A stretch of 64,000 nt of DNA from Candidatus Omnitrophota bacterium (GCA_043800555.1 JAZDMX010000014.1:15001-79000), one strand, 5' to 3'. Numbered from the stretch's first letter, positions 20,843-64,000 are shown. Notes: generated from the sequence alone by a model not told the origin. Numbers and translations: made by a program.

Positions 20843-20845
20843 GTT

Positions 20846-28422: not shown

Positions 28423-28453
28423 ACAAAGACAGCCTGCAAAAGGAGTAAAGATT

Positions 28454-30416: not shown

Positions 30417-30568
30417 TTATTAAAAGCCGCTAAGCGGTTGCCTTAGAGGCAGATAACAGGCAGCAATTATTAGTTGTAAAATCTGCCTACTAACTATTCC
30501 CCGGCGCCTTAATAATGTTTAAGGGTATTGTTTTTTAGCATAATGCCGGATAAGAAAGAAGGTGAGAG

Positions 30569-31306: not shown

Positions 31307-31312
31307 AATTTC

Positions 31313-31350
31313 TTGACAATCACAGCGGATTGTGATAAAAAATCATTATA
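31313..31350 (+). promoter_or_regulatory. Promoter with an overlapping palindromic operator-like site.
   Basis: TTGACA followed by ATCACAgcggatTGTGAT (a 6-6-6 inverted repeat), then an A/T-rich -10 region. Confidence 0.3.
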
Positions 31351-31463
31351 AATACAATATTTAGCGTAATTTATTTAGGAGGCGTTAAGCTTAAATTGGA
31401 AAAATAGGCGTAAGCAAGAAAGGCTCTTTCAGGGAACAAAGGGCCTTTTTTTGTAATACAAAT

Positions 31464-32453: not shown

Positions 32454-32479
32454 CGGATAAAGGCGTTCGTAAGGATAGC

Positions 32480-49528: not shown

Positions 49529-50476
49529 ATGGCCGGATTAGATTTCGAAAAACCAATCGTTGAATTAGAGAAGAAAATACAGGAATTAAAGCATTTTGTT
49601 TCGGACAAGAAAATAGACCTTTCTTCCGAGGTTAAGCGCCTTGAGGATAAACTCGAACACCTCAAAAAAGACACCTACACTAATCTTTCCGCCTGGCAGA
49701 GGGTGCAGCTTGCCCGTCATCCCCAGAGGCCGTATACCCTAGATTATATAAACCTGATTATGTCGGATTTTATCGAACTGCACGGGGACAGGCTTTTTGG
49801 AGATGACAAAGCCATAGTTTGCGGGTTTGCTAAATTAGATAAACAAAAAATAGCGGTTATCGGCCATCAAAAAGGCAGGGATACCAAGGAAAACCTTAAG
49901 CGTAATTTTGGATGCGCCCATCCCGAAGGTTACCGAAAGGCGCTTAGGGTTATGCAATTAGCCGAAGAATTCGGTTTGCCGGTGGTAATATTTATCGATA
50001 CGCCCGGGGCATACCCGGGAATAGGCGCGGAGGAGCGTGGCCAATCGCAAGCCATCGCGCTTAATTTAAGAGAAATGGTTGCCATCGCTACTCCTATAAT
50101 TTCTATTGTAATCGGAGAGGGCGGCTCAGGAGGGGCTTTAGGCGTGGGAGTGGCCGACCGTATCTTTGTATTGGAAAATTCCTATTATTCCGTTATTTCT
50201 CCCGAAGGTTGCGCCGCGATATTGTGGAAAGACGGTTCAAAGGCGCCTCAGGCAGCAGAGGTCCTTAAGTTGACAGGGGATGATTTGCTCGGCCTTAAGA
50301 TTATTGATGAAGTTATCCTTGAGCCTTTGGGAGGGGCGCATCGCGACCCCCAAAAGACATCCCGGGGATTAAAGGAGGCCATTGCCAGGAGCCTTAACGA
50401 ATTAAAATCTCATAGCAGGGATGAACTTCTAAAATTAAGATACAAAAAATTCCGCAACATAGGCATTGTAGCATGA
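49529..50476 (+). CDS. accA: Acetyl-CoA carboxylase carboxyltransferase alpha subunit.
   Basis: Crotonase-fold AccA motifs ([20 protein letters not shown]). Confidence 0.85.
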
Positions 50477-50991
50477 TTGAGCAGGAGTTATTATTATTAG
50501 GCTTACTAAAAGAAGGCCCCAAGCACGGCTACGATATTAAGACTAATATACAGCAGATCCTTTCTTTGTTCGCCGGAGTAGAATTAAAATCCATCTATTA
50601 CCCTTTGCGCATACTTGAGAAAAGAGGGTTGGTTGCCAAGCGAAGGATCAAGCCGGGCAAGAGGCCCGAGCGTATGGTTTACGCTTTAACCGCTAAGGGG
50701 CAGCAGCGTTTTAATGAGCTTTTAAATAAAAGCCTGCTTAGCCTTAAAAGGCCGCAATTTAGTTTGGATTTAAGCCTGTATTTTCTGCATTACATGAAAC
50801 CTGCGATAGCGGCCCGCCGTTTACGCGCCAGGTTACATATGCTTAATAAGATATCCGGGGGCCTGGAGCATATGGTTAAGGCTTCATCTGAAAGTAAGGC
50901 AGCGCCCTTAAGCCGTATTCTAGAGCATAACTTCAGGTTGCTTAAGGCAGAATCCCGCTATATCCTGCGGTTGATTAATACTTTGCGGTAA
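50473..50991 (+). CDS. PadR-family transcriptional regulator.
   Basis: Winged-HTH PadR N-terminus ([13 protein letters not shown]...[12 protein letters not shown]) with a C-terminal dimerization helix. Confidence 0.7.
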
Positions 50992-50997
50992 TTTTAC

Positions 50998-51026
50998 TTG
51001 ACAGCCCGGCTGTAATTTCATAAAAT
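50998..51026 (+). promoter_or_regulatory. Sigma70-like promoter preceding the 51.1-61.5 kb locus.
   Basis: TTGACA, a 17-nt spacer, then TAAAAT. Confidence 0.4.
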
Positions 51027-51041
51027 ATGAGTAAATTTAAA

Positions 51042-51057
51042 TAGTAAAATTTTACTA
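51042..51057. promoter_or_regulatory. Perfect 16-bp palindrome; candidate PadR operator.
   Basis: TAGTAAAATTTTACTA is its own reverse complement. It lies 15 nt downstream of the -10 and just after the padR gene. Confidence 0.45.
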
Positions 51058-51122
51058 TATACGCAGTAAGCCAAGCGCCTTCCGGCAGCTAGGCCTTAGC
51101 TATGACAAAAGGGATTTGATAT

Positions 51123-51380
51123 ATGGATTGGGATAAGGCTACGCAGAATAAGTTTCAGGTTGTGGTTACCAAGATACCTGTTTTCCATCGTCATATTACG
51201 GAAGAGGCGGTCACTAAAGGTTCGCAGGAGTATGCCCGGAAACGAGGCGCTGCTAAGGTCGAAGAAGTGGACGTGATTAGCGCTTTTTTCTCGGATGTCC
51301 CGGCTGCTTTCTATAGTATGATGGTCAGGCTCCTGGAGCAGAACGGGTTTGATTATAAGAAATACGGTTTTCCTAAATAG
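51123..51380 (+). CDS. Small PCP_red-like (protochlorophyllide-reductase C-terminal-domain-like) protein.
   Basis: At 85 aa, KIPVFHRHITEEAVTKGSQEYARKRG resembles the PCP_red fold motif; the assignment is tentative. Confidence 0.3.
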   Translation: MDWDKATQNKFQVVVTKIPVFHRHITEEAVTKGSQEYARKRGAAKVEEVDVISAFFSDVPAAFYSMMVRLLEQNGFDYKKYGFPK

Positions 51381-51425
51381 CGATGGCCCTGCTTGCCATG
51401 CTGACATGACCGTACCCGGGAAAAG

Positions 51426-52433
51426 TTGATGAGAATAGCAGTCATTGGCGCAGGCGCCATAGGGAACCTGATTGCCGGCTACCTGAAATTAAAGGGCGAG
51501 GATGTCTATCTGGTGGGCCGCGGGGAAGCGCTCCAGGCTATCTCAAATAACGGTTTGAAGATTAGCGGAGTGCGCGGAGACTTTAAAGTCGATATCGGCA
51601 TATACGACGCGTTGGTCTCCAATCCGGAGCTTGTAATATTAGCCACAAAGACACAGGATATAGGCCAGGCGTTAAAAGATAATCTTAACCGGATTAAAGG
51701 TTCTATTGTTTTGACTACGCAAAACGGCCTTGCCGCCGAAAGAATAGCCGCCGGGTTTCTTGCGAAAGAAAATATTTTCTCCAGTATTGTCATGTTTGGG
51801 GCTACTTGCCTGGAGGCGGGAAAAGTTATCCATAATTTTGAAGGGAGCTGGGTTTTAGGGAATTTGTTCTCTGAATCCATGGATCCGCGGTTGCTTCCTT
51901 TAAGCCTGGTTTCAGACAAGGCGTTTCCTTCGGTAATCAGCGCAGAAATCCTGGGGATGAAATACCTGAAGGTCTTTGTTAATGCCAATAACTGTATCCC
52001 GGCGATATTGGGAGTCAGTATGCAGGAAGCTTTCTTAGACCCGAAAATAAGCGGCATAAGCGTTGCGATTTGGAGAGAAGGTTTTCGGGTAATTTCAAAA
52101 GCCCGTATAAAGCTTGTTTCTTTGCCGGGTTTCCCGGTCGAAAACATAACCCGGCTTGTTGCTCTTGAGCCGGAAAAAGCGGCAGATGTTTTTTCGGGGA
52201 TTATGGGCAAGCTAAGCCGTGACCCGCTCTACGGATCCATATTGCAGAGTATTAAGAGAGGCAGGCCCTCGGAGATTGATTATATTAACGGAGAATTCGT
52301 AAGTTTAGCCCGGCGGTGTAATTTAAAGGCAGATTTGAACCAAAGGCTGGTTGAGATGGTGCATGAGGTAGAAAAGAGCAGGAGTTTTTTTACCAGGCTT
52401 GAGCTTTTGAACGCTACGCAAGGGTTTTTATAA
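51426..52433 (+). CDS. 2-dehydropantoate 2-reductase family (ApbA/PanE-like) NAD(P)-dependent ketoreductase.
   Basis: N-terminal Rossmann IAVIGAGAIGN and a PanE-family C-terminal domain. Confidence 0.65.
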   Translation: MMRIAVIGAGAIGNLIAGYLKLKGEDVYLVGRGEALQAISNNGLKISGVRGDFKVDIGIYDALVSNPELVILATKTQDIGQALKDNLNRIKGSIVLTTQNGLAAERIAAGFLAKENIFSSIVMFGATCLEAGKVIHNFEGSWVLGNLFSESMDPRLLPLSLVSDKAFPSVISAEILGMKYLKVFVNANNCIPAILGVSMQEAFLDPKISGISVAIWREGFRVISKARIKLVSLPGFPVENITRLVALEPEKAADVFSGIMGKLSRDPLYGSILQSIKRGRPSEIDYINGEFVSLARRCNLKADLNQRLVEMVHEVEKSRSFFTRLELLNATQGFL

Positions 52434-52499
52434 ATTAATCACGCGTAATGATAGCGGGAGTTTAAACACCCTCTCTGGCTAAAATAGGATTAAATATAT

Positions 52500-53090
52500 A
52501 TGGTAGATACGCCTTTCCCGAAATTAAAACTCACGGTCACAGGAGTATTTGGCGACTGTTACCACGGGTATAAATCCGGGGATGAGATGATTCTGGAAGA
52601 TTTTACCCATCCGCCCAAGCACTTTTGCCTGGGGCTGGCGCATGCGCTATTTCCGGTAATCTATGCTTTAAGTTTCGGCGCGAAATTCGGTTTCCGCGAT
52701 AATCAGCGTTCGCTTCTGGTGACTTGTCCCGATGGAGGAAAGTTAGAGTTTAAGGCGGAGATCTTGGATAAGGCAGGTAAGGTAGAGGTTCTCTCCAAGG
52801 ATCCGGCCCATAAATTTAATCCCAAAAAGATGGCTATTGAAGTAGTCAAAGCCAAAGGCAAGTGTACTTTTGGGTATAAGGTTGGAGATAAATGGGAGAC
52901 CCTGGGGTTAAAATGCATCCCGGGTTTTTGCGGGGCGGCGTTTCATACCGCGTTTCCAGCGCTGTTTGCCTTGAATTTCGGGGCAAAGTTTTTATTTATG
53001 GATGACCCGGATTCGATCGACACCGTAACCTGCCCCGACGGCGGGAATATCGTGTTTAAAGTTAGCCGGTTAGAAGGGGAGAAAAAATAA
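52500..53090 (+). CDS. Internally duplicated Cys/His-rich domain protein, possibly TIGR04076-like.
   Basis: Two 85-aa repeats each carry GxK.GD, FP.(I/L)(Y/F)AL.FGAKF and VTCPDGG motifs. Confidence 0.4.
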   Translation: MVDTPFPKLKLTVTGVFGDCYHGYKSGDEMILEDFTHPPKHFCLGLAHALFPVIYALSFGAKFGFRDNQRSLLVTCPDGGKLEFKAEILDKAGKVEVLSKDPAHKFNPKKMAIEVVKAKGKCTFGYKVGDKWETLGLKCIPGFCGAAFHTAFPALFALNFGAKFLFMDDPDSIDTVTCPDGGNIVFKVSRLEGEKK

Positions 53091-53093
53091 TTC

Positions 53094-54356
53094 ATGAATA
53101 AGCGCAGAGTAGTGATTACTGGGATCGGGGTAATTTCACCTAATGGTATAGGCAAGGATAAGGTTTATCGGGCGATGTGCGATGGCGTTTCCGGAATAAA
53201 GCGGGTAGACGGTTTTGATGTTTCGGTATTTAATACCAAGATTGCCGCGGAGGTGCGCGACTTCGATCCCTTTAAGTTCGGGCTTACCCACCAGGAAGCT
53301 GTGCGTATGGATAGATATGTGCAGTTTGGGGTGGTTGCCGGAAACATGGCGGTTAAGGACAGCGGTTTGGATTTTTCCAAAGTCGACCCCGGGCGTGTGG
53401 GAGTTTGCCTTGCCAATGCTATTTGCGGGACCAAATATATGGAAGAGGAATTTGCCCTGGTAACTGATGACGGGAAAAACCCGATTGACCCCTTAAAAGT
53501 AAGGCCAGATCTTTATGATGCCGCGATGTTTAATACGCCTTCCATAGAGCTATCTTCGAAATATCATTTGAATGGAATCTGCAATACCCTTTCTACGGGT
53601 TGCACAGCCGGGACAGATTCTTTGGGGTTTGGTCTAGAAGCGATCCAAGACGCAGAGCAGGATATCATGATTTGCGGGGCGGCAGAAGCCCCGATTACGC
53701 CGATTACTTTTGGCGCTTTTGACGTGGTAAATGTTTTATCGGTCCGCAACGATAACCCCGAGGCATCTTCACGGCCGTTTGATAACAAGCGTGACGGGTT
53801 TGTCCTAAGCGAGGGAGCCGGAATCGTGATCCTGGAGGAATTAAATCACGCTTTAAAGCGCAATGCCCGCATCTATTGCGAAGTTTTGGGTTTTGGCACC
53901 AGTTGCAACGCTTTTCATATGACTGATCTTCCGGGTGACGGACAGGCCATGACCACTTGTATAGTTTTAGCCATAAAAGACTCCGGGATCAAACCGCAGG
54001 AAATCGATTATATCAGCGCCCACGGCTCAAGCACGAGAATGAATGATATATTCGAAACCAACTCCTATAAGGCGGTTTTCGGGGATTACGCGTATAAGCT
54101 TCCTATAAGTTCGCTTAAGTCTATGATCGGCCATCCATTGGCCGCCTCCAACGCCATTGAGGTCACTGTTTGTTCCCTGATTTTCGAAAAGAACATCCTT
54201 CCTCCGACAATAAATCAAGAAGAGAAAGACCCTTTGTGCGATTTGAATTACGTCCCTAACCAAGCCATTACCAAGAAAGTAGATACGATCATTAAGACTA
54301 GTTCGGGTTTCTCCGGGATCCATTCTTCGCTGATCTTAAGGAGATATAATGGATAA
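53094..54356 (+). CDS. Beta-ketoacyl synthase (KS-alpha-like, FabF/KASII fold, catalytically complete).
   Basis: Active-site Cys (LSTGCTAGTDS), His (AFHMTD) and His (AHGSSTRMND) are all present. Confidence 0.8.
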   Translation: MNKRRVVITGIGVISPNGIGKDKVYRAMCDGVSGIKRVDGFDVSVFNTKIAAEVRDFDPFKFGLTHQEAVRMDRYVQFGVVAGNMAVKDSGLDFSKVDPGRVGVCLANAICGTKYMEEEFALVTDDGKNPIDPLKVRPDLYDAAMFNTPSIELSSKYHLNGICNTLSTGCTAGTDSLGFGLEAIQDAEQDIMICGAAEAPITPITFGAFDVVNVLSVRNDNPEASSRPFDNKRDGFVLSEGAGIVILEELNHALKRNARIYCEVLGFGTSCNAFHMTDLPGDGQAMTTCIVLAIKDSGIKPQEIDYISAHGSSTRMNDIFETNSYKAVFGDYAYKLPISSLKSMIGHPLAASNAIEVTVCSLIFEKNILPPTINQEEKDPLCDLNYVPNQAITKKVDTIIKTSSGFSGIHSSLILRRYNG

Positions 54357-55578
54357 AATAGCGATTACGGGCATTGGCATTGTCAGCCCTTCGGGAATAA
54401 ATAAGCGCCAGTTCTGGGCAAATATAAAAAGCGGGCGTTCTTTTATCAAAGAGATTACCCGCTTTGACGCTTCCAAATACCCCTCGCGCATCGCCGGGCA
54501 AATCGACGAGTTGAATAAATACAGCAACATATCCGAGCGTTTGCTTAAAAAGATAGATACGTTTTCACACATGGCCTTGATTGCTTCAGATCTTGCCTTG
54601 CAGGATTCCGGTATCGACATAAAGAATGAGGACCCCAATTTAGTCGGCATATTCTTAGGCAATGCTATCGGCGGCTGGCTTTATGCGGAAACCGAATTAC
54701 GTGATTTATATATCGAAGGCCGCGAAGGCGTATCTCCCTATATGGCTTCGGCGTGGTTTCCCGCTGCCCCGCAAGGCCAGGTTTCTATTTATTACGGGAT
54801 CAAGGGATTTTCTAAGACAGTTGTCGCAGATAGGGCCAGTTCTTTAATGGCTTTAGGTTATGGCTGCAAGGTTTTAAATAAGAATAAACTGAATATGATC
54901 CTGGCCGGAGGGATGGAAGCGCCGGTTACCCCTTATGCGCTTTTGTGCTGCAGCACCTACGGGGCCTTATCAAAGAATAATTCCAGCCCCCAGGAAGCTT
55001 ACAGGCCGTTTGACAGCAAGCGCGATGGTTGTGTAATCGGCGAAGGCGCAGGGATTGTGGTTATGGAGAGCATCGAGCGGGCCAGTAAAAGAGGCGTAAG
55101 GCCTTTAGCTTATATTTCCGGTTACGCCACTAACTGCGATGGAGTCGACCGGATTAATTGCGCCAGCGACGGTAAAGAACTAGCCAGGGCCATTAAATTA
55201 GCTCTTGCCGAAGCTAAAACCAATATCGATGAAATTGATTACATTAGTTTGGACGGCTTGGGGTTAAGTTTATGGGATGACTCTGAACTCCAGGCGGTTA
55301 AAAGCGTTTTTGCCAATAGGGCCAAGGATATCCCGGTAAGTTGCCCTAAATCAATGTTCGGGAATTTGTTGGGAGCTTCGGGCGCAGTGGATATGATCGC
55401 TGCTGTTCTGACGATGGAGCATAATTTAGTCCCGGTTACTTTAAATTTGGATGAGCCGGCAGTTAAAGGGCTCAATTATGTTACTAAGGAAGCCAAAGAA
55501 TACAAAATCAAAAAGGCCCTGGTTATTTCACGCGGAAGAGGGGGGATTAATTCGGTCTTGGTGGTTGAGAAACCGTAA
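54349..55578 (+). CDS. Ketosynthase-like partner lacking the Cys-His-His triad (chain-length-factor/KS-beta-like).
   Basis: KS fold, but the Cys position reads VVADRASS and the His positions read YATNCDG and LDGLGLS. It overlaps KS1 by 8 nt, consistent with translational coupling. Confidence 0.7.
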   Translation: MDKIAITGIGIVSPSGINKRQFWANIKSGRSFIKEITRFDASKYPSRIAGQIDELNKYSNISERLLKKIDTFSHMALIASDLALQDSGIDIKNEDPNLVGIFLGNAIGGWLYAETELRDLYIEGREGVSPYMASAWFPAAPQGQVSIYYGIKGFSKTVVADRASSLMALGYGCKVLNKNKLNMILAGGMEAPVTPYALLCCSTYGALSKNNSSPQEAYRPFDSKRDGCVIGEGAGIVVMESIERASKRGVRPLAYISGYATNCDGVDRINCASDGKELARAIKLALAEAKTNIDEIDYISLDGLGLSLWDDSELQAVKSVFANRAKDIPVSCPKSMFGNLLGASGAVDMIAAVLTMEHNLVPVTLNLDEPAVKGLNYVTKEAKEYKIKKALVISRGRGGINSVLVVEKP

Positions 55579-55597
55579 AATTTAGCAAATCCCCACA

Positions 55598-55638
55598 AAT
55601 TCCAATGCGGGTTTGGAATTCCAAACCCGCATTGGAAT
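55598..55638. repeat. Perfect inverted repeat of about 40 bp between the KS-beta-like gene and the radical SAM gene.
   Basis: aattccaatgcgggtttggaattccaaacccgcattggaat lies immediately upstream of the RBS ggaggtaagATG. Confidence 0.85.
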
Positions 55639-55653
55639 GAAAATGGAGGTAAG

Positions 55654-57114
55654 ATGAAAATACTTTTTGTCATGCCTAAAGTTGGCGCATGGGCAACACA
55701 CGGGATTCACCGCTCTCCGAATCAACTATACGCGCATTGGGCTGCGTATGTGCGCGAAAAAGGATATAAGGATGTTGCGGTTATTGACGGCAAGGCTGAA
55801 CAGATCCCTATGGACCGGCTTATCGAGCAGGTAAGGCTTAAGAATCCCGATGTTGTAGTGATGGGCGAGCAGCTCCATGGTTATGGCGGCTACGGAGTCT
55901 TGCGTCACTTTAAAGATGCTGCCGTTGGGATTAAAAAAGCGCTTCCTAAAACAAAAATAGTTTTCGGAGGCCTATGGTATTCGGCGATGCCCGTTTCTAC
56001 TCTGGAGGAAAATCCCGCAGTTGATTTTGTGGTTATGGGAGAAGAGGAGTCGTTCGGTGATTTGATCGAGGCAATAGATAAAAATAAGCCGCTTAAAGAC
56101 GTTGGCGGGGTTACTTCGCGTATCGACGGCTCAATTGTTATGGGCCCGCATAAGCCTTTGATGGAGGATTTGGATAAATTACCGCTTCCGGCGTATGATT
56201 TGTTCCCCATGGATAAATATGTGGGGCATACCTATTGGAAACCGTTTGTAGATATGGTTACTTCCCGGGGTTGCCCTTCGGCCTGCACTTTTTGCTATGA
56301 ATGGGACCAATTTGACCCGCGCCACCCTTCGGACTTCTTAAAGTGGCGCGCCAAAAGCCCGGAGCGGGTAATCGAGGAAATGAAGCTCCTGCGCGATAAA
56401 TACGGCGTCAAGGTAGTGGTAATCCAGGACGATAATTTCATCGTGGATCCTGCGCGCGTCAAGAAATTCTGCGAGTTAAAGAAGAAAAACAACATCGATA
56501 CCAAGTGGGTTTCTTTGGGCCGGGCAATTGATTGGATTAACTGCGAATCGATTTTGCCGCTTATGAAAGAGACGGGTTTGTTTATGGGGGTTTTTGGAAT
56601 CGAAGTAACCACCCAGTCAGAGCTTAAGAAAATCGCTAAAGGCATCACCATTGATCAGATCCAAAAGACAATCGATATTTTGCGTAAACAGGATATTGCT
56701 ATTGTCGCCGACATTATGATGGGTTTTGATTATGATACCGAAGCGATAATCAAGCAGCGTTTTGAGTTTACCGACGCAGTGGACCCGGATATTTTATGGG
56801 TAGGCTATGTCACTCCTGCACCGAATTCGCCCATGTGGAAGGTCGCTTTGAAGAAGAACTGGATTGACCCCAAGAAAGTCGATTTCTCGACGTGGGATTT
56901 CTTGCATCCGGTTATCCCCACGGACCATTTGAGCGTTGAGGACTTGGGCAGGCTTGGTTCATGGTGTATGCGTGAATTTTTCTCCAAGCCTGGGCGCGTC
57001 AACCGGATTATGGAGAGCGATTTTGACCCGCTGGCTAAACTTTGCTTCCAGGATGTTATGAACGGGCTCAATAAATGGGAAGCAGCCGCGACAAAGGGCG
57101 AAGTTCAGATATAA
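55654..57114 (+). CDS. B12-binding-domain radical SAM enzyme (class B).
   Basis: N-terminal B12-binding Rossmann region and a CxxxCxxC motif (RGCPSACTFC); 486 aa. Confidence 0.75.
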   Translation: MKILFVMPKVGAWATHGIHRSPNQLYAHWAAYVREKGYKDVAVIDGKAEQIPMDRLIEQVRLKNPDVVVMGEQLHGYGGYGVLRHFKDAAVGIKKALPKTKIVFGGLWYSAMPVSTLEENPAVDFVVMGEEESFGDLIEAIDKNKPLKDVGGVTSRIDGSIVMGPHKPLMEDLDKLPLPAYDLFPMDKYVGHTYWKPFVDMVTSRGCPSACTFCYEWDQFDPRHPSDFLKWRAKSPERVIEEMKLLRDKYGVKVVVIQDDNFIVDPARVKKFCELKKKNNIDTKWVSLGRAIDWINCESILPLMKETGLFMGVFGIEVTTQSELKKIAKGITIDQIQKTIDILRKQDIAIVADIMMGFDYDTEAIIKQRFEFTDAVDPDILWVGYVTPAPNSPMWKVALKKNWIDPKKVDFSTWDFLHPVIPTDHLSVEDLGRLGSWCMREFFSKPGRVNRIMESDFDPLAKLCFQDVMNGLNKWEAAATKGEVQI

Positions 57115-57214
57115 ACAGGGACAGTTTTGAGTCCCAGGGCGGAAACCGTTTTCCTGCCTGCCTGCAGGCAATTCAACCGTAAGAGCGGGAATATATGGTT
57201 TATGGAGGAAGGGC

Positions 57215-57448
57215 ATGGAGATGAAAGCAAAAGTTAAGGAAGTTCTGGCTAATTTGCTTAAGGTAAAGCCGGAAGAATTAAAAGAGGGCGTTTCTTTGGA
57301 AGAGAGCATAGGGGTGGATTCAACTGAAATGGTTGAGTCGGCCATTGCCCTGGAAAAAGCCTTTGGAGTGAAATTAAGCCCTAAAGAAATAAGCAAGTCT
57401 TCAAGCATTGAAGATATCGAGAGAGCGATTAAATCCAAGTTAGGCTGA
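57215..57448 (+). CDS. Acyl carrier protein.
   Basis: At 77 aa, it carries the phosphopantetheine-attachment motif GVDSTEMVE. Confidence 0.7.
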   Translation: MEMKAKVKEVLANLLKVKPEELKEGVSLEESIGVDSTEMVESAIALEKAFGVKLSPKEISKSSSIEDIERAIKSKLG

Positions 57449-58245
57449 TGAAAATAATCGACTTAAGCCTTCCGATAGATGACAAGGCGTTTGAGGTGCA
57501 CAAGGTCGCTATTGAGCGCATAACCCATAAGGCCGGCGTTGAGAAATTCAACCGCGTGATTATGGGCAAGGCCTTTTCAGAGAAAATAAAATACCTTTTA
57601 GGAAAACGCATCCTCAAAAAAGAAGATTTACCCGATGAAGAATTCCTGTCTCTGGAAGTTGTGCATTCACCGGTCCACGTCGGGACCCACCTTGATTATT
57701 CATTCCATTACGGCTCAAAATCAGAGAATCGGGCAGCTAAAACAGCCGAAGAGATCCCGCTTGAATACTGTTACCAGGATGGAATAAAGTTGGACCTTAG
57801 CCATAAAAGGCCTAACGAGGTAATCTGTGCTTCGGATGTCACAGCTGCGCTTGAAAAAATAAACTATAAATTAAAACCGCTGGATATTGTTTTGTTGCAT
57901 ACGGGAGCGGATAAATTGTACGGTTCGCCGGAATATTTCTCGGATTATCCGGGATTGGATATTTCGGCGATAGATTATATTTTGGATCAGGGGGTTAAGA
58001 TTTTTGGGGTGGATACAATGGGCATAGACCGGCCCTACAGGTTTATGTTGAAAGATTTTCTAGTGAACAAAGAATTTAAGGCCCTGTATCCGGCGCATTT
58101 CTACGGAAGAAAAAGGGAATTTATTCATATTGAGAGGTTGGCGAATTTAGAGAAGCTTCCGGCAACCGGATTCAAAGTTATTTGTTTTCCGGTAAAGATC
58201 AGGCAGACAGGAGCGGCTTGGTCGCGTGTAGTAGCGATAATATAA
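57448..58245 (+). CDS. Cyclase-family protein (PF04199-like, kynurenine-formamidase fold).
   Basis: HSPVHVGTHLD metal-binding motif (HxGTHxD). Confidence 0.6.
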   Translation: MKIIDLSLPIDDKAFEVHKVAIERITHKAGVEKFNRVIMGKAFSEKIKYLLGKRILKKEDLPDEEFLSLEVVHSPVHVGTHLDYSFHYGSKSENRAAKTAEEIPLEYCYQDGIKLDLSHKRPNEVICASDVTAALEKINYKLKPLDIVLLHTGADKLYGSPEYFSDYPGLDISAIDYILDQGVKIFGVDTMGIDRPYRFMLKDFLVNKEFKALYPAHFYGRKREFIHIERLANLEKLPATGFKVICFPVKIRQTGAAWSRVVAII

Positions 58246-58318
58246 ACCCCTGGCAGCTATCTGTAAATCATCGGTTGCCCGGGATCAATGCCTGTAATAA
58301 AAAAGAGAGGAGAAATTT

Positions 58319-58765
58319 ATGGGACATACCTGTAATTCAATAGTTATCAAAGCCCCGTATGATTTAGTATTTGATATTTCTAACGATATCCCGCGCTGGA
58401 CCGAATTATTCGGCAGCGAATACAAAAAAGCCGAGATTATAAAAAAAGAAGATAACAAGATTACTTTCCGCCTGACTGATGACGAAGACAAATCCTGGAT
58501 TTCCTGGAGGCTGCTTTATAAGGATAAATTCTTTACTTATTCCGAAAGGCAGGAACCAAAGTTCCCGTTTAAATATATGAAGATCGTCTGGCTCTATACA
58601 AAAAAACCGGAACAAGTGGATCTCACCTGGATTCAGCATTTTGAAATGGATGATAAAGCCAAGTTTGATGATGAGCAGGTGGAAGGCTTCATTAATAAAC
58701 ACTCCCAAGATAATCTTTTGATCTTTAAGAATGTAATTGAAAAGTTATCCACAACTGTAGCCTAG
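58319..58765 (+). CDS. SRPBCC (Bet v1-like) polyketide cyclase/dehydratase-like protein.
   Basis: At 148 aa, with predicted beta-alpha-beta START/Polyketide_cyc2-like topology; tentative. Confidence 0.45.
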   Translation: MGHTCNSIVIKAPYDLVFDISNDIPRWTELFGSEYKKAEIIKKEDNKITFRLTDDEDKSWISWRLLYKDKFFTYSERQEPKFPFKYMKIVWLYTKKPEQVDLTWIQHFEMDDKAKFDDEQVEGFINKHSQDNLLIFKNVIEKLSTTVA

Positions 58766-58808
58766 GTTTAAATCCGTCCTACCTCTGTGGATCAACAGGA
58801 GGCTAAAG

Positions 58809-59585
58809 ATGAATCAGGAATTAAAAGGTAAGGTAGCGATTGTAACAGGAGCAAGCCGGGGGATTGGCAAAGCCCTTGCCTGTACCGCAGCGGGTCTGGG
58901 AGCAAATTTGACTATTGCTGCCCGCGGCGAAGGCCCGTTAAAAGAAACAGCTGCTGAAATTGCCAAGCAATATAAGGTAGATGTTTTAACTGTTCCTTGC
59001 GATGTTACTAAGTTAGGGGATTTGGAGAATTTAGTGAATAAGACCAAAGAAAAATTCGGTAAGATCGATATCTTAATCAATAATGCCGGAGTTTCTTCGC
59101 AGTATCCTTTTCAGGAGCAGCCGATTGAGGATTTTGAAAGGCTTGCCCATACCAACTATTTGGGCTATGTGCGCCTGATTCGTTTGGTCATCAACGATAT
59201 GATAAAAAATAAGAGCGGAGCGATAATTAACATGGTTTCCGGTTCAACCTTATGCGATCCATTGCCAAGAAATTTTATCGTCTATAGCTCGTTGAAAGTC
59301 GGTTTACGTGCGTTTTCCAAAGGCCTTTTCTGGGAATTACGCGATCACGGCATAAAAGTAACTTCCATATTGCCCGGAGTTACGGATACAGACTTGACCG
59401 GGAAATTAAGCGAGATTACCAGTCAGTCCTCTAGGTTAATGAGCACTGAAGCGATTGAGGGCGCGGTCAGGTTTGCCCTGACTGTACCGCAAAATGTTTG
59501 TCCGTTAGAGATCGCGGTAATCAACCAGCAGACGCCTTGGACAGCCCCGGTAATCCCGTTTGAGCAGAAGCACCCCAGTAAATAA
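58809..59585 (+). CDS. Short-chain dehydrogenase/reductase (ketoreductase-like).
   Basis: TGASRGIGKA cofactor-binding motif, NNAG, and catalytic YSSLK. Confidence 0.8.
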   Translation: MNQELKGKVAIVTGASRGIGKALACTAAGLGANLTIAARGEGPLKETAAEIAKQYKVDVLTVPCDVTKLGDLENLVNKTKEKFGKIDILINNAGVSSQYPFQEQPIEDFERLAHTNYLGYVRLIRLVINDMIKNKSGAIINMVSGSTLCDPLPRNFIVYSSLKVGLRAFSKGLFWELRDHGIKVTSILPGVTDTDLTGKLSEITSQSSRLMSTEAIEGAVRFALTVPQNVCPLEIAVINQQTPWTAPVIPFEQKHPSK

Positions 59586-59632
59586 AACCCACCTCCACTT
59601 ACGATGTGGAGGAGGGAAAAGGAGGGTAAGAA

Positions 59633-60244
59633 ATGAAAAAAACAATTGTTTTGGCAGCGATTTTGTTTTTAGGCATAACAGGGATTGGTTTTGCCGCAGA
59701 GGGTAATTTATTGGTTGATGATTTTGAGATAGCAGTTTCTGCCGGCCCGGAGGGGACAGTTGATTTTGGCGCAGGCAATGGCTCAACTATAAAAGTTACC
59801 GCGGCAGCGGATGTTAAAAATACCGGTAAGCAGAGTTTAAAAGTAGATTTTGATGCGGTTACCGGTGGGTATATGTATGTTGCCCGGGGAGAAGGCCTTG
59901 ATGCGCATAATACCGGATGGCTCGTAAACCCCGACGATATCAAATGGCAGGATTACAAAGCCTTTTCTTTTTATATGTATGGTTCAGGTTCCAAAGGCAA
60001 AATAGCTTTTGATCTTAAGGATAACGGGAATGAAATCTGGCGTTTTATAGTCGAGGACAATTTCAAAGGCTGGAAGCAAATTATCTGCAATTTTGACCAA
60101 TTTACCGTCAGAGGCGATTGGCAGCCGCAGAGTTCCGATAATAACGGAATGCTTAATTTTCCAGTCAAGTCTTTTCAATTCGAGCCGCTTCCCCCGTTTA
60201 AAGGCATAATTTATTTTGATACAATGGAGTTGATCAAGAAATAA
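59633..60244 (+). CDS. Secreted beta-rich protein, possibly a carbohydrate-binding-module/CIA30-like fold.
   Basis: Signal peptide; no enzymatic motif. Confidence 0.3.
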   Translation: MKKTIVLAAILFLGITGIGFAAEGNLLVDDFEIAVSAGPEGTVDFGAGNGSTIKVTAAADVKNTGKQSLKVDFDAVTGGYMYVARGEGLDAHNTGWLVNPDDIKWQDYKAFSFYMYGSGSKGKIAFDLKDNGNEIWRFIVEDNFKGWKQIICNFDQFTVRGDWQPQSSDNNGMLNFPVKSFQFEPLPPFKGIIYFDTMELIKK

Positions 60245-60636
60245 TGCATAGACGGGATTTAAAGAACCTAAAAAAACGTTACCTTATTTGGTTTTATAAA
60301 ACTACCAAAGAGGCGTTGGATAAAATCGAGCGCAAATTTACCCAGGTTGATATCGACCGTTTTATCCTGGAAGAGTTGAAGAATTCGGATAAGGATAAAG
60401 CGGCCGAGTCTTTAATCGCCCGGTTTGAAGAGTATCTTCAAAAGAAGGAGACAGACGGCCTTAGTTTAAAATTCGAAAACAAAAAGGTAAGGCCGGATTA
60501 TTTATTCCTTTGCTGGAAATTAGAGGCGATTGAAAAAGCGATCGCCAAAGAGCTGGGGAAGAAAGCTCTCGAAGAGATAAAACTTCTTTATGAAGTCGAG
60601 ATGATCGAACGGATATTAAGGAGCACAGAGCACTAA
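60244..60636 (+). CDS. Hypothetical protein.
   Basis: ORF only, charged and helical. Confidence 0.25.
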   Translation: MHRRDLKNLKKRYLIWFYKTTKEALDKIERKFTQVDIDRFILEELKNSDKDKAAESLIARFEEYLQKKETDGLSLKFENKKVRPDYLFLCWKLEAIEKAIAKELGKKALEEIKLLYEVEMIERILRSTEH

Positions 60637-61545
60637 ATGTTTATTGACGCTCATAGTCATTGGTTACCGGAAGGCATAATCAAAAACGCCCATTTTTTCC
60701 ATAAGGGCTGGGGGGATATTGAGTCTCAGCTGAAGATGATGGATGAGGCGGGAATTGATAAGGCTGTTCTGTCTTATCCGACTAGTGATGCGCATCTGAA
60801 ATTGGGAAGCATATCCGAAGTTGTACGCATATTTAACGATCATGTCGCAAAAATCATCAAGAAATACCCGGATAGGTTTATCGGAGCGGCAACTCTGCCC
60901 ATAGACCACCAGTCGGATATGCTCAAAGAAATAAGGCGCGCGACAGAGGAATTAGGTTTTCAGGCCTTATCCCTGGGGACTAGTTATGCCGGCATTTATT
61001 TGGATGATGCAAGATTCCTGGATGTATATAAACTGGCGCAAAGCAAAAACCTGCCGATTTTCGTCCATCCGCAGATAGTAAAGCCGATAGGCAGCGAGCG
61101 CGTAGAGGATGCGCTGCTCACCCCCGTAATAGAATATGTATTTGATACGACGATGTGCATCGGAAAACTCCTGATGTCGGATATTTTGCGCGATTATCAA
61201 ACAAAGTTTATTTTCAGTTATTTTGGCGGAGTTACGCCGTTTTTGGCAAACAGGTTTGATGCGACTTATCAGATGCTGCGGGGCTTGAATTTTGTTAAGG
61301 ATTTGCAAGCCAGGCCCACAGAGTTATTGAAGAATATTTATGTGGATACCAGCGGAGATATGGCCAAAGCGAATTTCCAGGCAGCCCTGGAGTTATTCGG
61401 GCCGCAGCATATTTTATGGGGGAGCGACTGGCCGGCCAAGCGCGACATTGCCCCCGGCATCAATGCAATCAAGGATTTGAATATATCTGAAGCGGATAAA
61501 AATAGTATTTTAGGAGGTAATTTAGCTCAAATTCTTGCTCTTTAG
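60637..61545 (+). CDS. Amidohydrolase-2 family TIM-barrel metal-dependent hydrolase.
   Basis: N-terminal DAHSHW metal-binding motif and an Amidohydro_2 pattern. Confidence 0.6.
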   Translation: MFIDAHSHWLPEGIIKNAHFFHKGWGDIESQLKMMDEAGIDKAVLSYPTSDAHLKLGSISEVVRIFNDHVAKIIKKYPDRFIGAATLPIDHQSDMLKEIRRATEELGFQALSLGTSYAGIYLDDARFLDVYKLAQSKNLPIFVHPQIVKPIGSERVEDALLTPVIEYVFDTTMCIGKLLMSDILRDYQTKFIFSYFGGVTPFLANRFDATYQMLRGLNFVKDLQARPTELLKNIYVDTSGDMAKANFQAALELFGPQHILWGSDWPAKRDIAPGINAIKDLNISEADKNSILGGNLAQILAL

Positions 61546-61635
61546 CAATTTGTATCTGGTTTGTCTTATTTCTTGTGGGAGGTCCCGGGCTCGCTCAAGG
61601 CCTTGAGCGAACAAAGCGGCAGATTCATTGGTATC

Positions 61636-62010
61636 ATGATAAAATTCTTAAATCTGGTTATTGGCGGAGCAGCAGGAACAATTGCTCGATATGTTTTAGC
61701 CGGGGCTGTTTATAGAATAACCGGCTCAGCGTTTCCTTATGGAACGCTTATCGTCAATATTTCCGGGTGTTTTGTCTTAGGGGTCTTGGCGTCTTTAGCG
61801 GAGAAGAAGTTTATTCTAGGGCCTGACGCCCGGATATTGCTGATGATAGGTTTTTGCGGAGCGTTTACTACGTTCTCAACTTTGATCTTTGAAAGCGATA
61901 CTCTTGTAAGAAATGGGCAGGCGATAAAAGCATTCGGCAATATATTGGTCAGCGTAGTTTTGGGCCTTATTTTGTTTAGGGTCGGTTCTTTATTAGGCGA
62001 GATTATTTAA
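61636..62010 (+). CDS. crcB: Fluoride channel CrcB/Fluc.
   Basis: At 124 aa with four TM helices, it carries GxxGTxxRY and GFCGAFTTFSTF motifs. The ORF is open from 61561. Confidence 0.75.
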   Translation: MIKFLNLVIGGAAGTIARYVLAGAVYRITGSAFPYGTLIVNISGCFVLGVLASLAEKKFILGPDARILLMIGFCGAFTTFSTLIFESDTLVRNGQAIKAFGNILVSVVLGLILFRVGSLLGEII

Positions 62011-62024
62011 ACCGGGAGATAAAA

Positions 62025-62357
62025 ATGAAGATTCCTGCTGATGGCAAGCTCTTAAGGATTTTTATAGGCGAGGCCGACAAATGGAACGGCAAGCCGCTTT
62101 ATGAAGAGATCGTGCTTTTGGCTAAAAAAGAAGGAATGGCCGGGGCAACCGCTATAAAGGGATTTATGGGTTTTGGATGCAAGAGCCATATGCACACAGT
62201 AAATCTGCTTAGGTTATCCGAAGACTTGCCGGTTGTCATTGAAATAGTCGATAGTGAGGACAAAATCAATAAGCTTATTCCACAGCTTGATAATATGGTT
62301 AAGGAAGGCCTAATTACTCTGGAGAAAGCCAACGTAATTATGTACCGCGCGCAATAA
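62025..62357 (+). CDS. DUF190-family protein, a frequent crcB partner.
   Basis: LLRIFIGEADKWNGKPLYE N-terminus and a GATAIKGFMGFG motif. Confidence 0.6.
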   Translation: MKIPADGKLLRIFIGEADKWNGKPLYEEIVLLAKKEGMAGATAIKGFMGFGCKSHMHTVNLLRLSEDLPVVIEIVDSEDKINKLIPQLDNMVKEGLITLEKANVIMYRAQ

Positions 62358-62373
62358 AAAGGAGACAATTAAC

Positions 62374-63123
62374 ATGCAAATGGCAAAGGATGTTCATTTA
62401 ACGGGTAAAGATTTAACGCAAATGGTGCAGTTGCGCCAGCAGGATGTGGGTAAATACGCGATTGTCCCCGGCCCCAAGGATAGGCTGGAAGTCCTGATGA
62501 AGAAAATCGATAGTCCGGTAAAAAACTTCTCGTTTATGGAGTACACGATGTACACCGGCACTTATCAGGGAATAAAATTAACCGCAATTAACGGCGGCAG
62601 GTTTTCTACCGATACCTCCATTACCAGCGAAGTAATGTGTAATGCCAGGATCGACAATATCATCCGCGTGGGCACAGCCGGTTCTTTGGATGAAAATATA
62701 AAGGTAGGAGATTTGTTTGTGGTTGATGAGGTTATCCGGGGAGACGGAGTTACGCCTTATTATGTGGATAAGGATTTTGAAACCGTAGCCGACAAAAGAA
62801 TAGCCGATACGCTTTACGAAATCGGTAAGGCTATGGGATTAAATATTCATCGCGGCAAAGCCTGGACAACGGATGCGCTTTTACGCGAAACTAGAGAGAT
62901 AGTCGAAGCTAAGCGTAAGGAGGGGGCAAGGGCGGTAGATATGGTTTCTGCAACGCTCTTAACCATTGCCCAGACTTATGGCGTTAAGGCAGGTTCAATC
63001 TTAGCCGTAAGCGATAACGTGGTAACCGGCGAGATGGGCTTTATGAACCCTTTGTATTATATGGCTGAAGCCAACATCTTGAAAATTGCCCTTGAGGCAG
63101 TGGTAAAACTAGAGGGAAAATGA
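62374..63123 (+). CDS. PNP/UDP-family nucleoside phosphorylase (purine/uridine/MTA phosphorylase-like).
   Basis: PNP_UDP_1 motifs (AIVPGPKDR, IRVGTAGSL, DMVSAT). Confidence 0.65.
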   Translation: MQMAKDVHLTGKDLTQMVQLRQQDVGKYAIVPGPKDRLEVLMKKIDSPVKNFSFMEYTMYTGTYQGIKLTAINGGRFSTDTSITSEVMCNARIDNIIRVGTAGSLDENIKVGDLFVVDEVIRGDGVTPYYVDKDFETVADKRIADTLYEIGKAMGLNIHRGKAWTTDALLRETREIVEAKRKEGARAVDMVSATLLTIAQTYGVKAGSILAVSDNVVTGEMGFMNPLYYMAEANILKIALEAVVKLEGK

Positions 63124-64000
63124 AATTTTCTCCACTCTTCTGGCCGATCCAGCTTAAGGATGGCGTAGTTTACATCCTTGATGAAACTCTCCTGCCGCGC
63201 AAGCTTACCTATATAAAGACTAAGAATTACCAGGAAGCCTGCCGCGCAATTAAGGAAATGAAAACCCGGGCCGTAGGCCAGGTTCTTTTAGTGATGTATA
63301 TTTTCCTGCAGTTAATTAAGCGAGGAAAACAAAAGGACCTGGCAAAAGTAGCTAACGCCATAAACTCGACCCGGCCGACATTATCGTTTAAGTTTTTAAC
63401 GGATATGGTTCTGGGTTGGGCCAAATCCGGAGCCCCCTTAGAAAAATGCATTCTAGGATTCTTAGAAGGTTTAAAATACAGCCGGATTAAACAGGCAGAA
63501 GAAGCCAATACGCTAATTAATGATGGAGATTCAATCCTTACCCATTGCAACATTAGCGGGCTTTTGCCTTTAATCGGAGAGATTTGCCGCAAGCAGGGAA
63601 AGAGAATACGTTTTTTTGCTACTGAAACCCGGCCATATATGCAAGGCTCGCGTTTAACCGCCTGGGAATTAAAACAGGCTGGTTTTGATGTTACTTTAAT
63701 CACTGACGGAATGACTGCCGCGGTTATGTCGCTGGGTAAAGTAAATAAAGTTATTGTCGGAGCAGATCATTTGGCGCAAAATGGCGATATCGCTAATAAA
63801 ATCGGGACTTACGGTATTGCGGTTTTAGCCAAGCATTTTAAATTGCCTTTTTATGTTTTATGCCCGCCGGCTTCCGGGTTAAGGAGCGGCAAAGATATTA
63901 AAATCGAGATAAGGCCGGATAAAGAGATGTTGGAGTACCAGGGTTTACGCTTAGCGCCCAAAGGCGCGAAAGGTTATTATCCGGCATTCGATGTTACACC
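63120..64000 (+). CDS. e2b2-family isomerase (ribose-1,5-bisphosphate isomerase or methylthioribose-1-phosphate isomerase), 3'-partial at the window edge.
   Basis: ETRPYMQGSRLTAWEL, LITDGMTAAVM and GADHLAQNGDIANKIGTY motifs. Its ATG overlaps the upstream TGA. Confidence 0.65.
   Translation, partial: MKFSPLFWPIQLKDGVVYILDETLLPRKLTYIKTKNYQEACRAIKEMKTRAVGQVLLVMYIFLQLIKRGKQKDLAKVANAINSTRPTLSFKFLTDMVLGWAKSGAPLEKCILGFLEGLKYSRIKQAEEANTLINDGDSILTHCNISGLLPLIGEICRKQGKRIRFFATETRPYMQGSRLTAWELKQAGFDVTLITDGMTAAVMSLGKVNKVIVGADHLAQNGDIANKIGTYGIAVLAKHFKLPFYVLCPPASGLRSGKDIKIEIRPDKEMLEYQGLRLAPKGAKGYYPAFDVT

Follow-up and report, generated by a model that had tools for sequence, protein, structure and literature searches.

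The operon described here is a 13-gene cluster on the + strand of a 64,000-nucleotide stretch of DNA from a Candidatus Omnitrophota bacterium. This whole stretch is referred to as the window, and all coordinates are positions within it, counted from its first letter as 1. [quoted passage not shown] Its center is a pair of ketosynthases (KSs), of which the first has an intact active site and the second has lost the catalytic triad. They are accompanied by an acyl carrier protein (ACP), two cyclases, a putative decarboxylase, and a radical S-adenosylmethionine (SAM) enzyme. The genes are as follows, with families assigned by curated-model scans (Pfam, NCBIfam/TIGRFAM) and structural relatives by sequence matches to the Protein Data Bank (PDB).

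51123-61545, + strand: PKS operon, 13 genes, ~10.4 kb, gaps short or genes overlapping
51123..51380, + strand: 85-amino-acid (aa) protein, first operon gene
51426..52433, + strand: ApbA/PanE-family NAD(P)H-dependent oxidoreductase (PF02558, PF08546, TIGR00745)
52500..53090, + strand: tandem TIGR04076 protein, two TIGR04076 domains
53094..54356, + strand: KS1, candidate KS-α (PF00109 143.6 bits, PF02801 102.9 bits)
54349..55578, + strand: KS2, candidate chain-length factor (CLF, KS-β; PF00109 156.3 bits, PF02801 92 bits)
55654..57114, + strand: class B (B12-binding) radical SAM enzyme (PF02310 41.4 bits, PF04055 71.4 bits)
57215..57448, + strand: ACP (PF00550 40.8 bits)
57448..58245, + strand: PF04199 cyclase, OxyN type (98.4 bits)
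58319..58765, + strand: SRPBCC protein, TcmN/WhiE-type monodomain aromatase/cyclase (ARO/CYC; PF03364 and PDB matches)
58809..59585, + strand: short-chain dehydrogenase/reductase (SDR; PF00106 172.7 bits)
59633..60244, + strand: CBM_11-like protein (PF03425 68 bits)
60244..60636, + strand: 130-aa protein, family-less
60637..61545, + strand: Amidohydro_2 enzyme (PF04909 83.9 bits)

The genes that an earlier note on this DNA had described are all found at these positions and on this strand, among them the SDR and the amidohydrolase downstream of the cyclases. The family assignments pass the curated thresholds, except for those of the 85-aa protein and of PF10604 for the SRPBCC protein.

The ketosynthase pair

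The active sites were read by HMMER alignment and by a table against the FabF enzymes of E. coli, B. subtilis, and Listeria, with the FabF triad Cys163 (motif ACxSG), His303 (AHGTST), and His340 (KSMTGH) as reference. In KS1, the Cys, both His, and the Lys are intact. In KS2, the triad positions are occupied by Arg, Asp, and Asn, the Lys is retained, and no catalytic Cys is found upon alignment with FabF, a residue that the earlier note had named as one whose presence would weaken its reading. Hence, the full triad reported for KS1 and the loss of all three residues reported for KS2 both stand, whereas two of the motifs cited for them, HMTD in KS1 and ATNCDG in KS2, are not triad positions. 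The Cys position of KS2 reads Arg (ADRASS), as in the CLFs of Clostridium and Ktedonobacter, as opposed to Gln in the actinorhodin CLF. The Arg is a clade trait, and it does not exclude type II PKS membership because CLFs of accepted type II PKS organisms share it.

Among structures in the PDB, KS1 is most similar to the actinorhodin KS-α (1tqy_A; 367.6 bits, 42% identity), followed by the ketosynthase 6smo_B (357.9 bits), which we take to be AntD of Photorhabdus; every FabF scores 337 bits or less. KS2 reaches 273 bits with FabF and 235 bits with the actinorhodin CLF, to which it is 33% identical. The placement of both was determined by a neighbor-joining tree (300 bootstraps) of 30 sequences, comprising the KS/CLF pairs of related loci, the E. 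coli FabF, and four sequences taken from PDB alignments, namely the actinorhodin KS, the actinorhodin CLF, and the FabF enzymes of B. subtilis and Listeria. The KS1 orthologues form a KS-α clade with ClrA and the actinorhodin KS, and the KS2 orthologues form a CLF clade with ClrB, the Ktedonobacter CLF, and the actinorhodin CLF, each with 100% bootstrap. The FabF enzymes of E. coli, B. subtilis, and Listeria fall outside both clades. KS1 is thus a triad-bearing member of the KS-α clade that stands apart from FabF, and the adjacent KS2 is a member of the CLF clade without the catalytic Cys. This supports the assignment of KS1/KS2 as the KS-α/CLF pair of a type II PKS rather than a FabF pair, as the earlier note had proposed.

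KS1 and KS2 are 32% identical to each other, KS1 is 44% identical to the Clostridium KS, and KS2 is 42% identical to the Clostridium CLF. Because the identities across clusters exceed that within the pair, the duplication is old and the KS/CLF pairs are orthologous across clusters. The two genes overlap by 8 nt (54349-54356), as had been noted before, which suggests translational coupling, and their products would form a heterodimer.

Relatives of KS2 were collected with HMMER by searching a library of 1.84 billion representative proteins exhaustively. The nearest single-domain relatives are CLF-like and all carry the WF(P/Y)A motif (WFPAAPQGQ/WFYA) typical of CLFs; all but one lack the Cys, and most read D-R-A-S. 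By cluster membership, they include proteins of Clostridium beijerinckii, C. puniceum, Ktedonobacter racemifer, Chitinivibrionales, and metagenome-assembled genomes (MAGs) of Deltaproteobacteria, and a protein of a Candidatus Omnitrophota MAG is 100% identical to KS2. In a scan of one genome per GTDB species, 480 genomes contain a motif-bearing CLF relative, of which the best 80 were inspected. KS2 is 77-90% identical across these 80 species despite the loss of its triad, and is under strong purifying selection.

Cyclases, putative decarboxylase, and tailoring enzymes

The ACP carries its phosphopantetheine Ser in GVDSTEM, in which the DST motif of the earlier note is recognized, and the operon hence has the dedicated ACP of a type II PKS. 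The PF04199 cyclase contains HVGTHLDYSFH, which includes the HxGTHxD motif that had been pointed out before, and has 46% identity with its counterpart in C. beijerinckii. It is predicted to be a metal-dependent OxyN-type cyclase for the later rings. The architecture KS-CLF-ACP-TcmN-OxyN was named ancestral by Hertweck and colleagues (PMC7693217).

For the SRPBCC protein, the Pfam assignment is close to the thresholds: PF03364 passes (24.9 bits, cut-off 23.4), whereas PF10604, one of the families that the earlier note had listed for scanning, is marginal and stays below its cut-off (23.4 against 27.4 bits). The assignment is unambiguous in the PDB search, in which all significant matches (E <1e-20) are WhiE ARO/CYC (3tvr, 3tl1, 2kf2; ~88 bits) and TcmN ARO/CYC (2rer etc.; ~81 bits), with ZhuI next at an E of 0.28. 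The protein aligns with WhiE and TcmN over its full length. In this alignment, the catalytic and pocket residues of TcmN (Tyr35, Ser67, Arg69, Met91, Trp95, Trp108, and Gln110) are all matched, among them the catalytic Tyr and Arg of a TcmN-type aromatase/cyclase. The protein is thus of the TcmN/WhiE type and would cyclize and aromatize the first ring; TcmN-type ARO/CYCs are described as closing the first ring between C9 and C14 (PMC10945814).

The best PDB match of the Amidohydro_2 enzyme is the 5-carboxyvanillate decarboxylase LigW (87 bits), and further matches are ACMSD, γ-resorcylate decarboxylase, and 2,3-dihydroxybenzoate decarboxylase. The enzyme is proposed to be of the nonoxidative aromatic-acid decarboxylase type and may remove the terminal carboxylate of the polyketide. 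This fits the dendrubin pathway, for which a terminal decarboxylation followed by oxygenation and methylation of the anthrone was proposed (PMC7693217). A FabZ-type dehydratase or an enoyl reductase is not found in the operon. Taken together, the evidence points to an aromatic polyketide, not to an aryl polyene or an unusual lipid. Of the product types considered in the earlier note, the type II polyketide is retained in its aromatic form, the other two are not, and its suggestion of an undescribed product class still holds.

The radical SAM enzyme lies between the KS pair and the ACP, as described before. It has the domain order of class B with a B12-binding domain (PF02310, cut-off 32.1 bits) and the CxxxCxxC core in GCPSACTFC, which together define a cobalamin-binding radical SAM enzyme; cobalamin binding itself is predicted. 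Its closest curated families are BchE (199.7 bits, cut-off 481.35) and HpnJ (156.5 bits, cut-off 577.6), and methylase families score lower than these. The best PDB match is AprD4 (59 bits). Domain order and CxxxCxxC are common to BchE, the anaerobic Mg-protoporphyrin monomethylester cyclase, to HpnJ, and to the window enzyme, but the latter is far below both cut-offs and is found in a PKS context rather than a tetrapyrrole or hopanoid one. The chemistry is quite possibly C-methylation, for which a type II PKS offers a precedent in which an anthraquinone is the substrate of a radical SAM C-methylase (PMC9714029). A BchE-like oxidation or cyclization is a more tentative proposal, and some other reaction is to be regarded with the same reserve. 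BchE performs an O2-free oxidation of methylene to ketone together with C–C bond formation (PMC13598231), and a BchE-like oxidation here would be a plausible anaerobic equivalent of anthrone oxygenation. In either case, the enzyme is a concrete candidate for oxygenase-free tailoring of aromatic polyketides in strict anaerobes.

Two reductases are encoded. The ApbA/PanE protein (PF02558 106 bits, PF08546 65 bits, TIGR00745 160 bits with a cut-off of 141), rightly called PanE-like in the earlier note, probably reduces a keto group or the starter unit, and its gene also invariably precedes TIGR04076-KS-CLF without intervening genes in L004, L006, and L090, three related loci. The SDR is absent from L004, L006, and L008 and is predicted to be a ketoreductase-type tailoring enzyme specific to the cluster version of Omnitrophota and L090.

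The protein at 52500-53090, described earlier as a tandem VTCPDGG-motif protein, consists of two TIGR04076 stretches (95.7 bits, cut-off 33). The repeats are rich in Cys and His, and each is arranged as β-β-α-β-β. In C. beijerinckii (L008), TIGR04076 is the N-terminal half of a 175-aa protein, the C-terminal half of which is ACP-like (DMDSTEV), and the family recurs in type II PKS clusters of anaerobes. The tandem protein is hence probably an accessory protein of the ACP or PKS. The ACP-like fusion in Clostridium and the constant PKS neighborhood provide a first functional handle on this orphan family.

The remaining proteins are less conspicuous. The 85-aa protein matches DUF2621 best (20.5 bits, below the cut-off of 27.7); PCP_red (PF08369), which the earlier note had in mind, scores only 12.4 bits (E 0.17), and this label is to be dropped. 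Homologues occur also in L090 and L005. The 130-aa protein has no family match in the Pfam and NCBIfam scans and has a counterpart in L090. The CBM_11-like protein has an N terminus that reads as a signal peptide and is predicted to be secreted. Its gene, situated between those of the SDR and the 130-aa protein, is replaced or accompanied by an MFS transporter gene in L002 and L090 and is a variable passenger inside the operon.

Conservation and related clusters

The best 80 of the 480 genomes all belong to Omnitrophota or carry doubtful "Planctomycetales" labels. The core set is found in the same order in all 80 loci, as far as the flank permits: 85-aa, ApbA, TIGR04076x2, KS1, KS2, radical SAM, ACP, cyclase, SRPBCC, SDR, and Amidohydro_2. 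Counted among those of the 80 loci that have enough flank, the 85-aa gene is present in 54/54 (mean identity 66%), ApbA in 55/55, the ACP in 58/58, the SDR in 48/48 (86%), and Amidohydro_2 in 42/42, as opposed to 39/42 for the 130-aa gene and 29/45 for the CBM_11-like gene. The radical SAM gene is present in 57/58 loci and, with a mean identity of 88%, is better conserved than any other operon gene. TIGR04076 averages 85% identity to the window, and KS1 and KS2 average 80% each; the flanking housekeeping genes stand at 81% (AccA) and 83% (phosphorylase). The divergence of most operon genes follows that of the flanks, with a positive Spearman correlation of ~0.4-0.7; KS1 and the PF04199 cyclase show it weakly. 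The same gene order in 80 independent genomes is far beyond chance. Because of this strict synteny, the housekeeping-level identities, and a divergence that tracks the flanks, the operon is old in the lineage, has been passed on mostly by vertical descent, and is subject to strong purifying selection. Omnitrophota genomes measure 0.86-3.2 Mb (PMC10066038). Since the operon is conserved like acetyl-CoA carboxylase in at least 80 species of such an uncultivated, small-genome lineage, its product is probably of physiological importance.

Some labels are at odds with this distribution. Contigs L018, L020, L022, L023, and others are fully syntenic with a KS2 identity of 77-82% and are labeled "uncultured Planctomycetales" at NCBI; L090 shows the same synteny with a KS2 identity of 70% and is labeled "Thermodesulfobacteriota." Either the taxon labels are doubtful or a recent transfer took place.

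More distant clusters are represented by L004/L005 (KS2 identity 47%), L006/L007 (58%, labeled Deltaproteobacteria), and L090/L091 (70%, the latter pair labeled Thermodesulfobacteriota). All of them keep ApbA-TIGR04076-KS-CLF-ACP-cyclase-SRPBCC-Amidohydro_2 and add B12-radical SAM genes, aldehyde:ferredoxin oxidoreductases, phytoene-desaturase-like flavoproteins, MFS/MMPL transporters, and LolA-like DUF1329/DUF1302 proteins. The Chitinivibrionales-like L094 has a different pair of B12-radical SAM genes together with LuxC/LuxE, and its cyclase gene is preceded by a single TIGR04076 gene. L095 has neither B12-radical SAM nor TIGR04076 and instead contains genes for an O-methyltransferase, a cupin, and a flavin-monooxygenase; it is read as an aerobic-type cluster. 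Type II PKSs of anaerobes are thus repeatedly accompanied by B12-radical SAM enzymes and TIGR04076. MMPL/RND transporters with sterol-sensing-like domains and LolA-like DUF1329/DUF1302/TP_0789 proteins are found in the flanks of related clusters (L006 1-3236; L090 3208-5574 and 19031-21461; L094 18683-19236; L009 11258-11992), which hints at a hydrophobic product and its delivery to the outer membrane.

Among known systems, the cluster of the clostrubin producers C. beijerinckii and C. puniceum (L008) is among the closest to the window operon. It has KS-α, an Arg-bearing CLF, TIGR04076, ACP, PF04199, TcmN-type SRPBCC, and Amidohydro_2 genes in a similar order with 30-46% identity, and its host is anaerobic like that of the window. 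From the species pair, L008 would be the published clr cluster. The gatekeeper positions of the CLF are alike, reading W/A/L in the window and W/G/L in Clostridium. The Clostridium cluster lacks the B12-radical SAM enzyme, the ApbA reductase, the SDR, and the 85-aa and 130-aa proteins, and has extras of its own in the form of KSIII, two ACPS genes, CMD, DUF362, DUF169, and hydrolases. Moreover, its TIGR04076 domain shares a protein with an ACP-like half, as opposed to the free-standing tandem of the window, and the His positions of its CLF read E/H instead of D/N.

The "ancestral" systems of dendrubin (den), AQ-256 (ant), and pyxidicycline (pcy) share KS, CLF, ACP, and cyclases of the TcmN and OxyN types with the window (PMC7693217). 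They contain, however, a duplicated TcmN-TcmN (PMC7693217), as opposed to the monomeric TcmN domain of the window, which in addition has a radical SAM gene between CLF and ACP. They also occur sporadically, whereas the window operon is lineage-wide and chromosomal. The actinorhodin minimal PKS (1tqy) resembles the window in being the best PDB match of KS1 and in having KS2 within its CLF clade; it differs in that the window operon has no O2-dependent tailoring enzymes and carries Arg rather than Gln in its CLF. Such clusters had been called rare outside Actinobacteria in the earlier note, which is outdated in view of the known ancestral clade of clostrubin, dendrubin, and AQ-256 (PMC7693217) and of a 2023 survey that lists CLFs of Candidatus Omnitrophica among those of 14 phyla without further analysis (PMC10132072). 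The survey paper on Omnitrophota does not mention polyketides or secondary metabolism, and literature searches on ketosynthases in Omnitrophota, on TIGR04076, and on polyketides in Velamenicoccus/OP3 gave nothing relevant. To the extent that the literature could be searched, the operon structure, its strict conservation at a housekeeping-like rate, the embedded B12-radical SAM enzyme, the connection between TIGR04076 and ACP, and the adjacent salvage genes are new.

A different origin of the KS pair could be sought in a specialized fatty-acid or lipid pathway similar to ladderane Cluster I of anammox bacteria, which leads to an unusual membrane lipid. Therein, amxFabF2/amxFabF-mut form a KS/CLF-like heterodimer and are encoded beside amxACP, amxFabZ, a phytoene-desaturase homologue, and a B12 radical SAM enzyme (bioRxiv 10.64898/2026.05.19.726425), so that both systems combine, within one conserved cluster on the chromosome, an active KS and its triad-less partner with a cobalamin radical SAM enzyme and a dedicated ACP. 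The housekeeping-level conservation would suit such a pathway as well, and the phytoene-desaturase-like Amino_oxidase genes, which Cluster I shares with L004 and L006, as well as the MMPL and LolA-like genes of related clusters, suggest a hydrophobic, membrane-directed product. Omnitrophota and the anammox Planctomycetota, furthermore, both belong to the Planctomycetes–Verrucomicrobia–Chlamydiae group. The proteins, however, are not orthologous. Against the chains of 9s5h, presumed to be the anammox KS pair, KS1 and KS2 score 266/203 and 188/181 bits, less than against FabF (337/273) and the actinorhodin KS/CLF (368/235), and the partner KS of Cluster I has Val/Thr at the Cys position. The radical SAM enzyme reaches 65.4 bits with the "ladderane" family TIGR04072 (cut-off 360). 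Neither that family nor amxFabZ nor an orthologous amxFabF pair, by which Cluster I is recognized, is found in the window; in place of FabZ and an enoyl reductase, the operon has two aromatic-polyketide cyclases, one of them matched in its TcmN residues, and a homologue of aromatic-acid decarboxylases. This explanation is hence improbable. The same applies, slightly more so, to a highly reducing type II PKS (polyene, ishigamide, aryl-polyene) or a cispentacin-like system with a nonaromatic product. It would account for the two reductases of the ApbA and SDR families, and weak NCBIfam matches to the cispentacin proteins AmcF and AmcB exist, but the AmcF equivalog (NF058662, cut-off 325) is missed widely by KS1 (157 bits) and KS2 (138 bits). 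The LolA-like and MMPL genes of the relatives are typical of aryl-polyene clusters; against this, KS1 scores 237 bits with the ishigamide KS (6kxd_A) and 368 with the actinorhodin KS, a dehydratase gene is absent from the operon, and cyclases of the TcmN and OxyN types are kept throughout the clade.

It is scarcely credible that KS1 and KS2 are housekeeping FabF enzymes of fatty acid synthesis, the one a decayed paralogue of the other. Both have FabF models as their best NCBIfam matches, accA lies upstream of the operon in about half of the relatives, and no further KS is visible within the 64-kb window. With 442.1 and 360.8 bits, however, KS1 and KS2 both miss the FabF equivalog cut-off of TIGR03150 (493.75), and both lie outside the FabF clade with 100% bootstrap. 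A fab-operon synteny in relatives, which the earlier note had named as the observation that would overturn its reading, is not found: no fabD/fabH/fabG/fabZ/fabI neighborhood occurs in >85 related loci, and no fab genes occur in the window. KS2, moreover, is under the strong purifying selection described above although it has no triad. The housekeeping FabF pair is thus refuted by phylogeny and synteny, and the type II PKS for an aromatic product remains the probable explanation.

Proposed pathway and genomic setting

In the proposed pathway, the dedicated ACP would take up malonate, with the malonyl transferase and the phosphopantetheinyl transferase encoded elsewhere. The KS1/KS2 heterodimer would then make a poly-β-ketone, with KS1 as the active KS-α and KS2 as the catalytically dead CLF that shapes the tunnel. 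A C20-like chain length is a weak guess from the similarity to the Clostridium CLF and from the C20 clade in PMC7693217. The TcmN/WhiE-type aromatase/cyclase would close and aromatize the first ring and the OxyN-type PF04199 cyclase the later ones, after which the LigW/resorcylate-decarboxylase-like Amidohydro_2 enzyme may take off the terminal carboxylate. The ApbA-family and SDR reductases could adjust keto groups. The B12-radical SAM enzyme would perform the O2-independent tailoring, be it C-methylation, a BchE-like oxidation of methylene to ketone, or C–C bond formation, and its by-product 5'-deoxyadenosine may be recycled through the phosphorylase, isomerase, and aldolase encoded downstream. 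The tandem TIGR04076 protein would act as an accessory partner of the ACP or PKS.

The salvage genes begin shortly behind the operon, and the features adjoining it on both sides are as follows.

50473..50991, + strand: PadR-family regulator (PF03551 52 bits), 4-nt overlap with accA
50998..51026, + strand: promoter-like site TTGACA-17-TAAAAT (11/12 match) in the gap between the PadR and 85-aa genes
61561-62357: CrcB (fluoride channel) and DUF190, separating the operon from the phosphorylase gene
62374..63123, + strand: nucleoside phosphorylase (PNP_UDP_1; PF01048 116 bits)
63120..64000, + strand: MtnA-like (IF-2B family) sugar-1-phosphate isomerase, continues past the window end

The phosphorylase has only subthreshold NCBIfam matches; the isomerase matches NF004326 (224 bits) and TIGR00524 (186.3 bits, cut-off 185.85). 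The phosphorylase would probably catalyze the first salvage step and the isomerase the second. In L001-L003, L006, and L090, the next genes encode a class II aldolase and an aldehyde dehydrogenase. The salvage-type genes behind the PKS lie at 62374-64000 in the window (phosphorylase and isomerase), 17240-19910 in L001, 18447-21242 in L006, and 16181-18873 in L090, and the phosphorylase is found 3' of the operon in 35/36 related loci and also in L006 and L090. Phosphorylase, isomerase, and aldolase together resemble the dihydroxyacetone phosphate (DHAP) shunt for the salvage of 5'-deoxyadenosine and 5'-methylthioadenosine. The DHAP shunt disposes of 5'-deoxyadenosine, an inhibitory by-product of radical SAM enzymes (PMC6079011, PMC10986504), and a functional coupling of the salvage genes to the radical SAM enzyme is probable.

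Several points weigh against the aromatic type II PKS as set out here. KS2 does not have the Gln that is the hallmark of actinobacterial CLFs and is linked to malonyl-ACP decarboxylation, and with its Arg, chain initiation may differ from that of the actinobacterial systems. The tree was built from distances (neighbor joining) on 30 modestly sampled sequences, as opposed to a maximum-likelihood analysis covering MIBiG in full. The radical SAM enzyme reaches the cut-off of no curated family, and genes for a malonyl-CoA:ACP transacylase, a phosphopantetheinyl transferase, and a thioesterase are absent from the operon. Conserved synteny alone could account for the proximity of the salvage genes, and L006 and L090, which support co-transfer, rest on deposited, unconfirmed taxon labels.

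Type II PKSs are regarded as sporadic secondary metabolism, chiefly of actinomycetes; the window operon, in contrast, keeps a fixed place on the chromosome. A bolder idea, which we consider rather unlikely, is that the product is a lineage-wide, quasi-primary metabolite of Omnitrophota and some labeled Desulfobacterota, namely a polycyclic aromatic polyketide, made wholly without O2, that acts as a redox carrier of the membrane or as a pigment with a protective role. The radical SAM enzyme would then be the anaerobic counterpart of anthrone oxygenases and quinone C-methylases, and TIGR04076 a previously unrecognized ACP-partner module of anaerobic type II PKSs. If true, a type II PKS would have been recruited into the core physiology of a phylum with streamlined genomes. 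With 13 genes on 10.4 kb, the operon is a compact target for heterologous expression.

Upstream, the PadR gene adjoins the operon in 32/53 related loci, and its product is a possible regulator. The promoter-like site is the top-scoring one of the region and the probable, if only suggestive, start of the operon; the total of such sites across the region is not above the shuffled expectation. A terminator scan of the region stayed at chance level, and Rfam and tRNA scans gave no match within or adjoining the operon. The CrcB/DUF190 genes are preceded by a gap of 15 nt in which no fluoride riboswitch is detected by Rfam. They are present at this place in 10/41 related loci and are therefore a lineage-specific insertion.

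The G+C content of the cluster is 45.4% compared with 46.2% for the remaining window, and a DNA search of the KS-radical SAM stretch against plasmids gave no match. The remaining window is ordinary chromosome with genes for pyrimidine and purine synthesis, a Mur ligase, EF-G, HypD/HypF, and tRNAs. When respiratory-complex and quinone genes were sought in the window, its large open reading frames (ORFs) proved to be purine, pyrimidine, Mur-ligase, and hydrogenase-maturation genes. A Mutator-family transposase (PF00872, 237 bits) lies at 3840-5084 amid housekeeping genes. At 19781-22130, HypD is accompanied by a protein that matches the C-terminal, Kae1-like half of HypF only, the N-terminal HypF domains not being seen in the ORF; these HypD/HypF-like genes suggest that the bacterium matures a [NiFe]-hydrogenase and lives anaerobically. 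The region 27298-34665 encodes an M20 peptidase, a PAC2-family protein, an AIR-synthase-related protein, two tandem D-Ala-D-Ala-ligase-like ATP-grasp enzymes, and a lysine-2,3-aminomutase-like radical SAM enzyme, and may be a small cluster for peptide or amino-acid modification.

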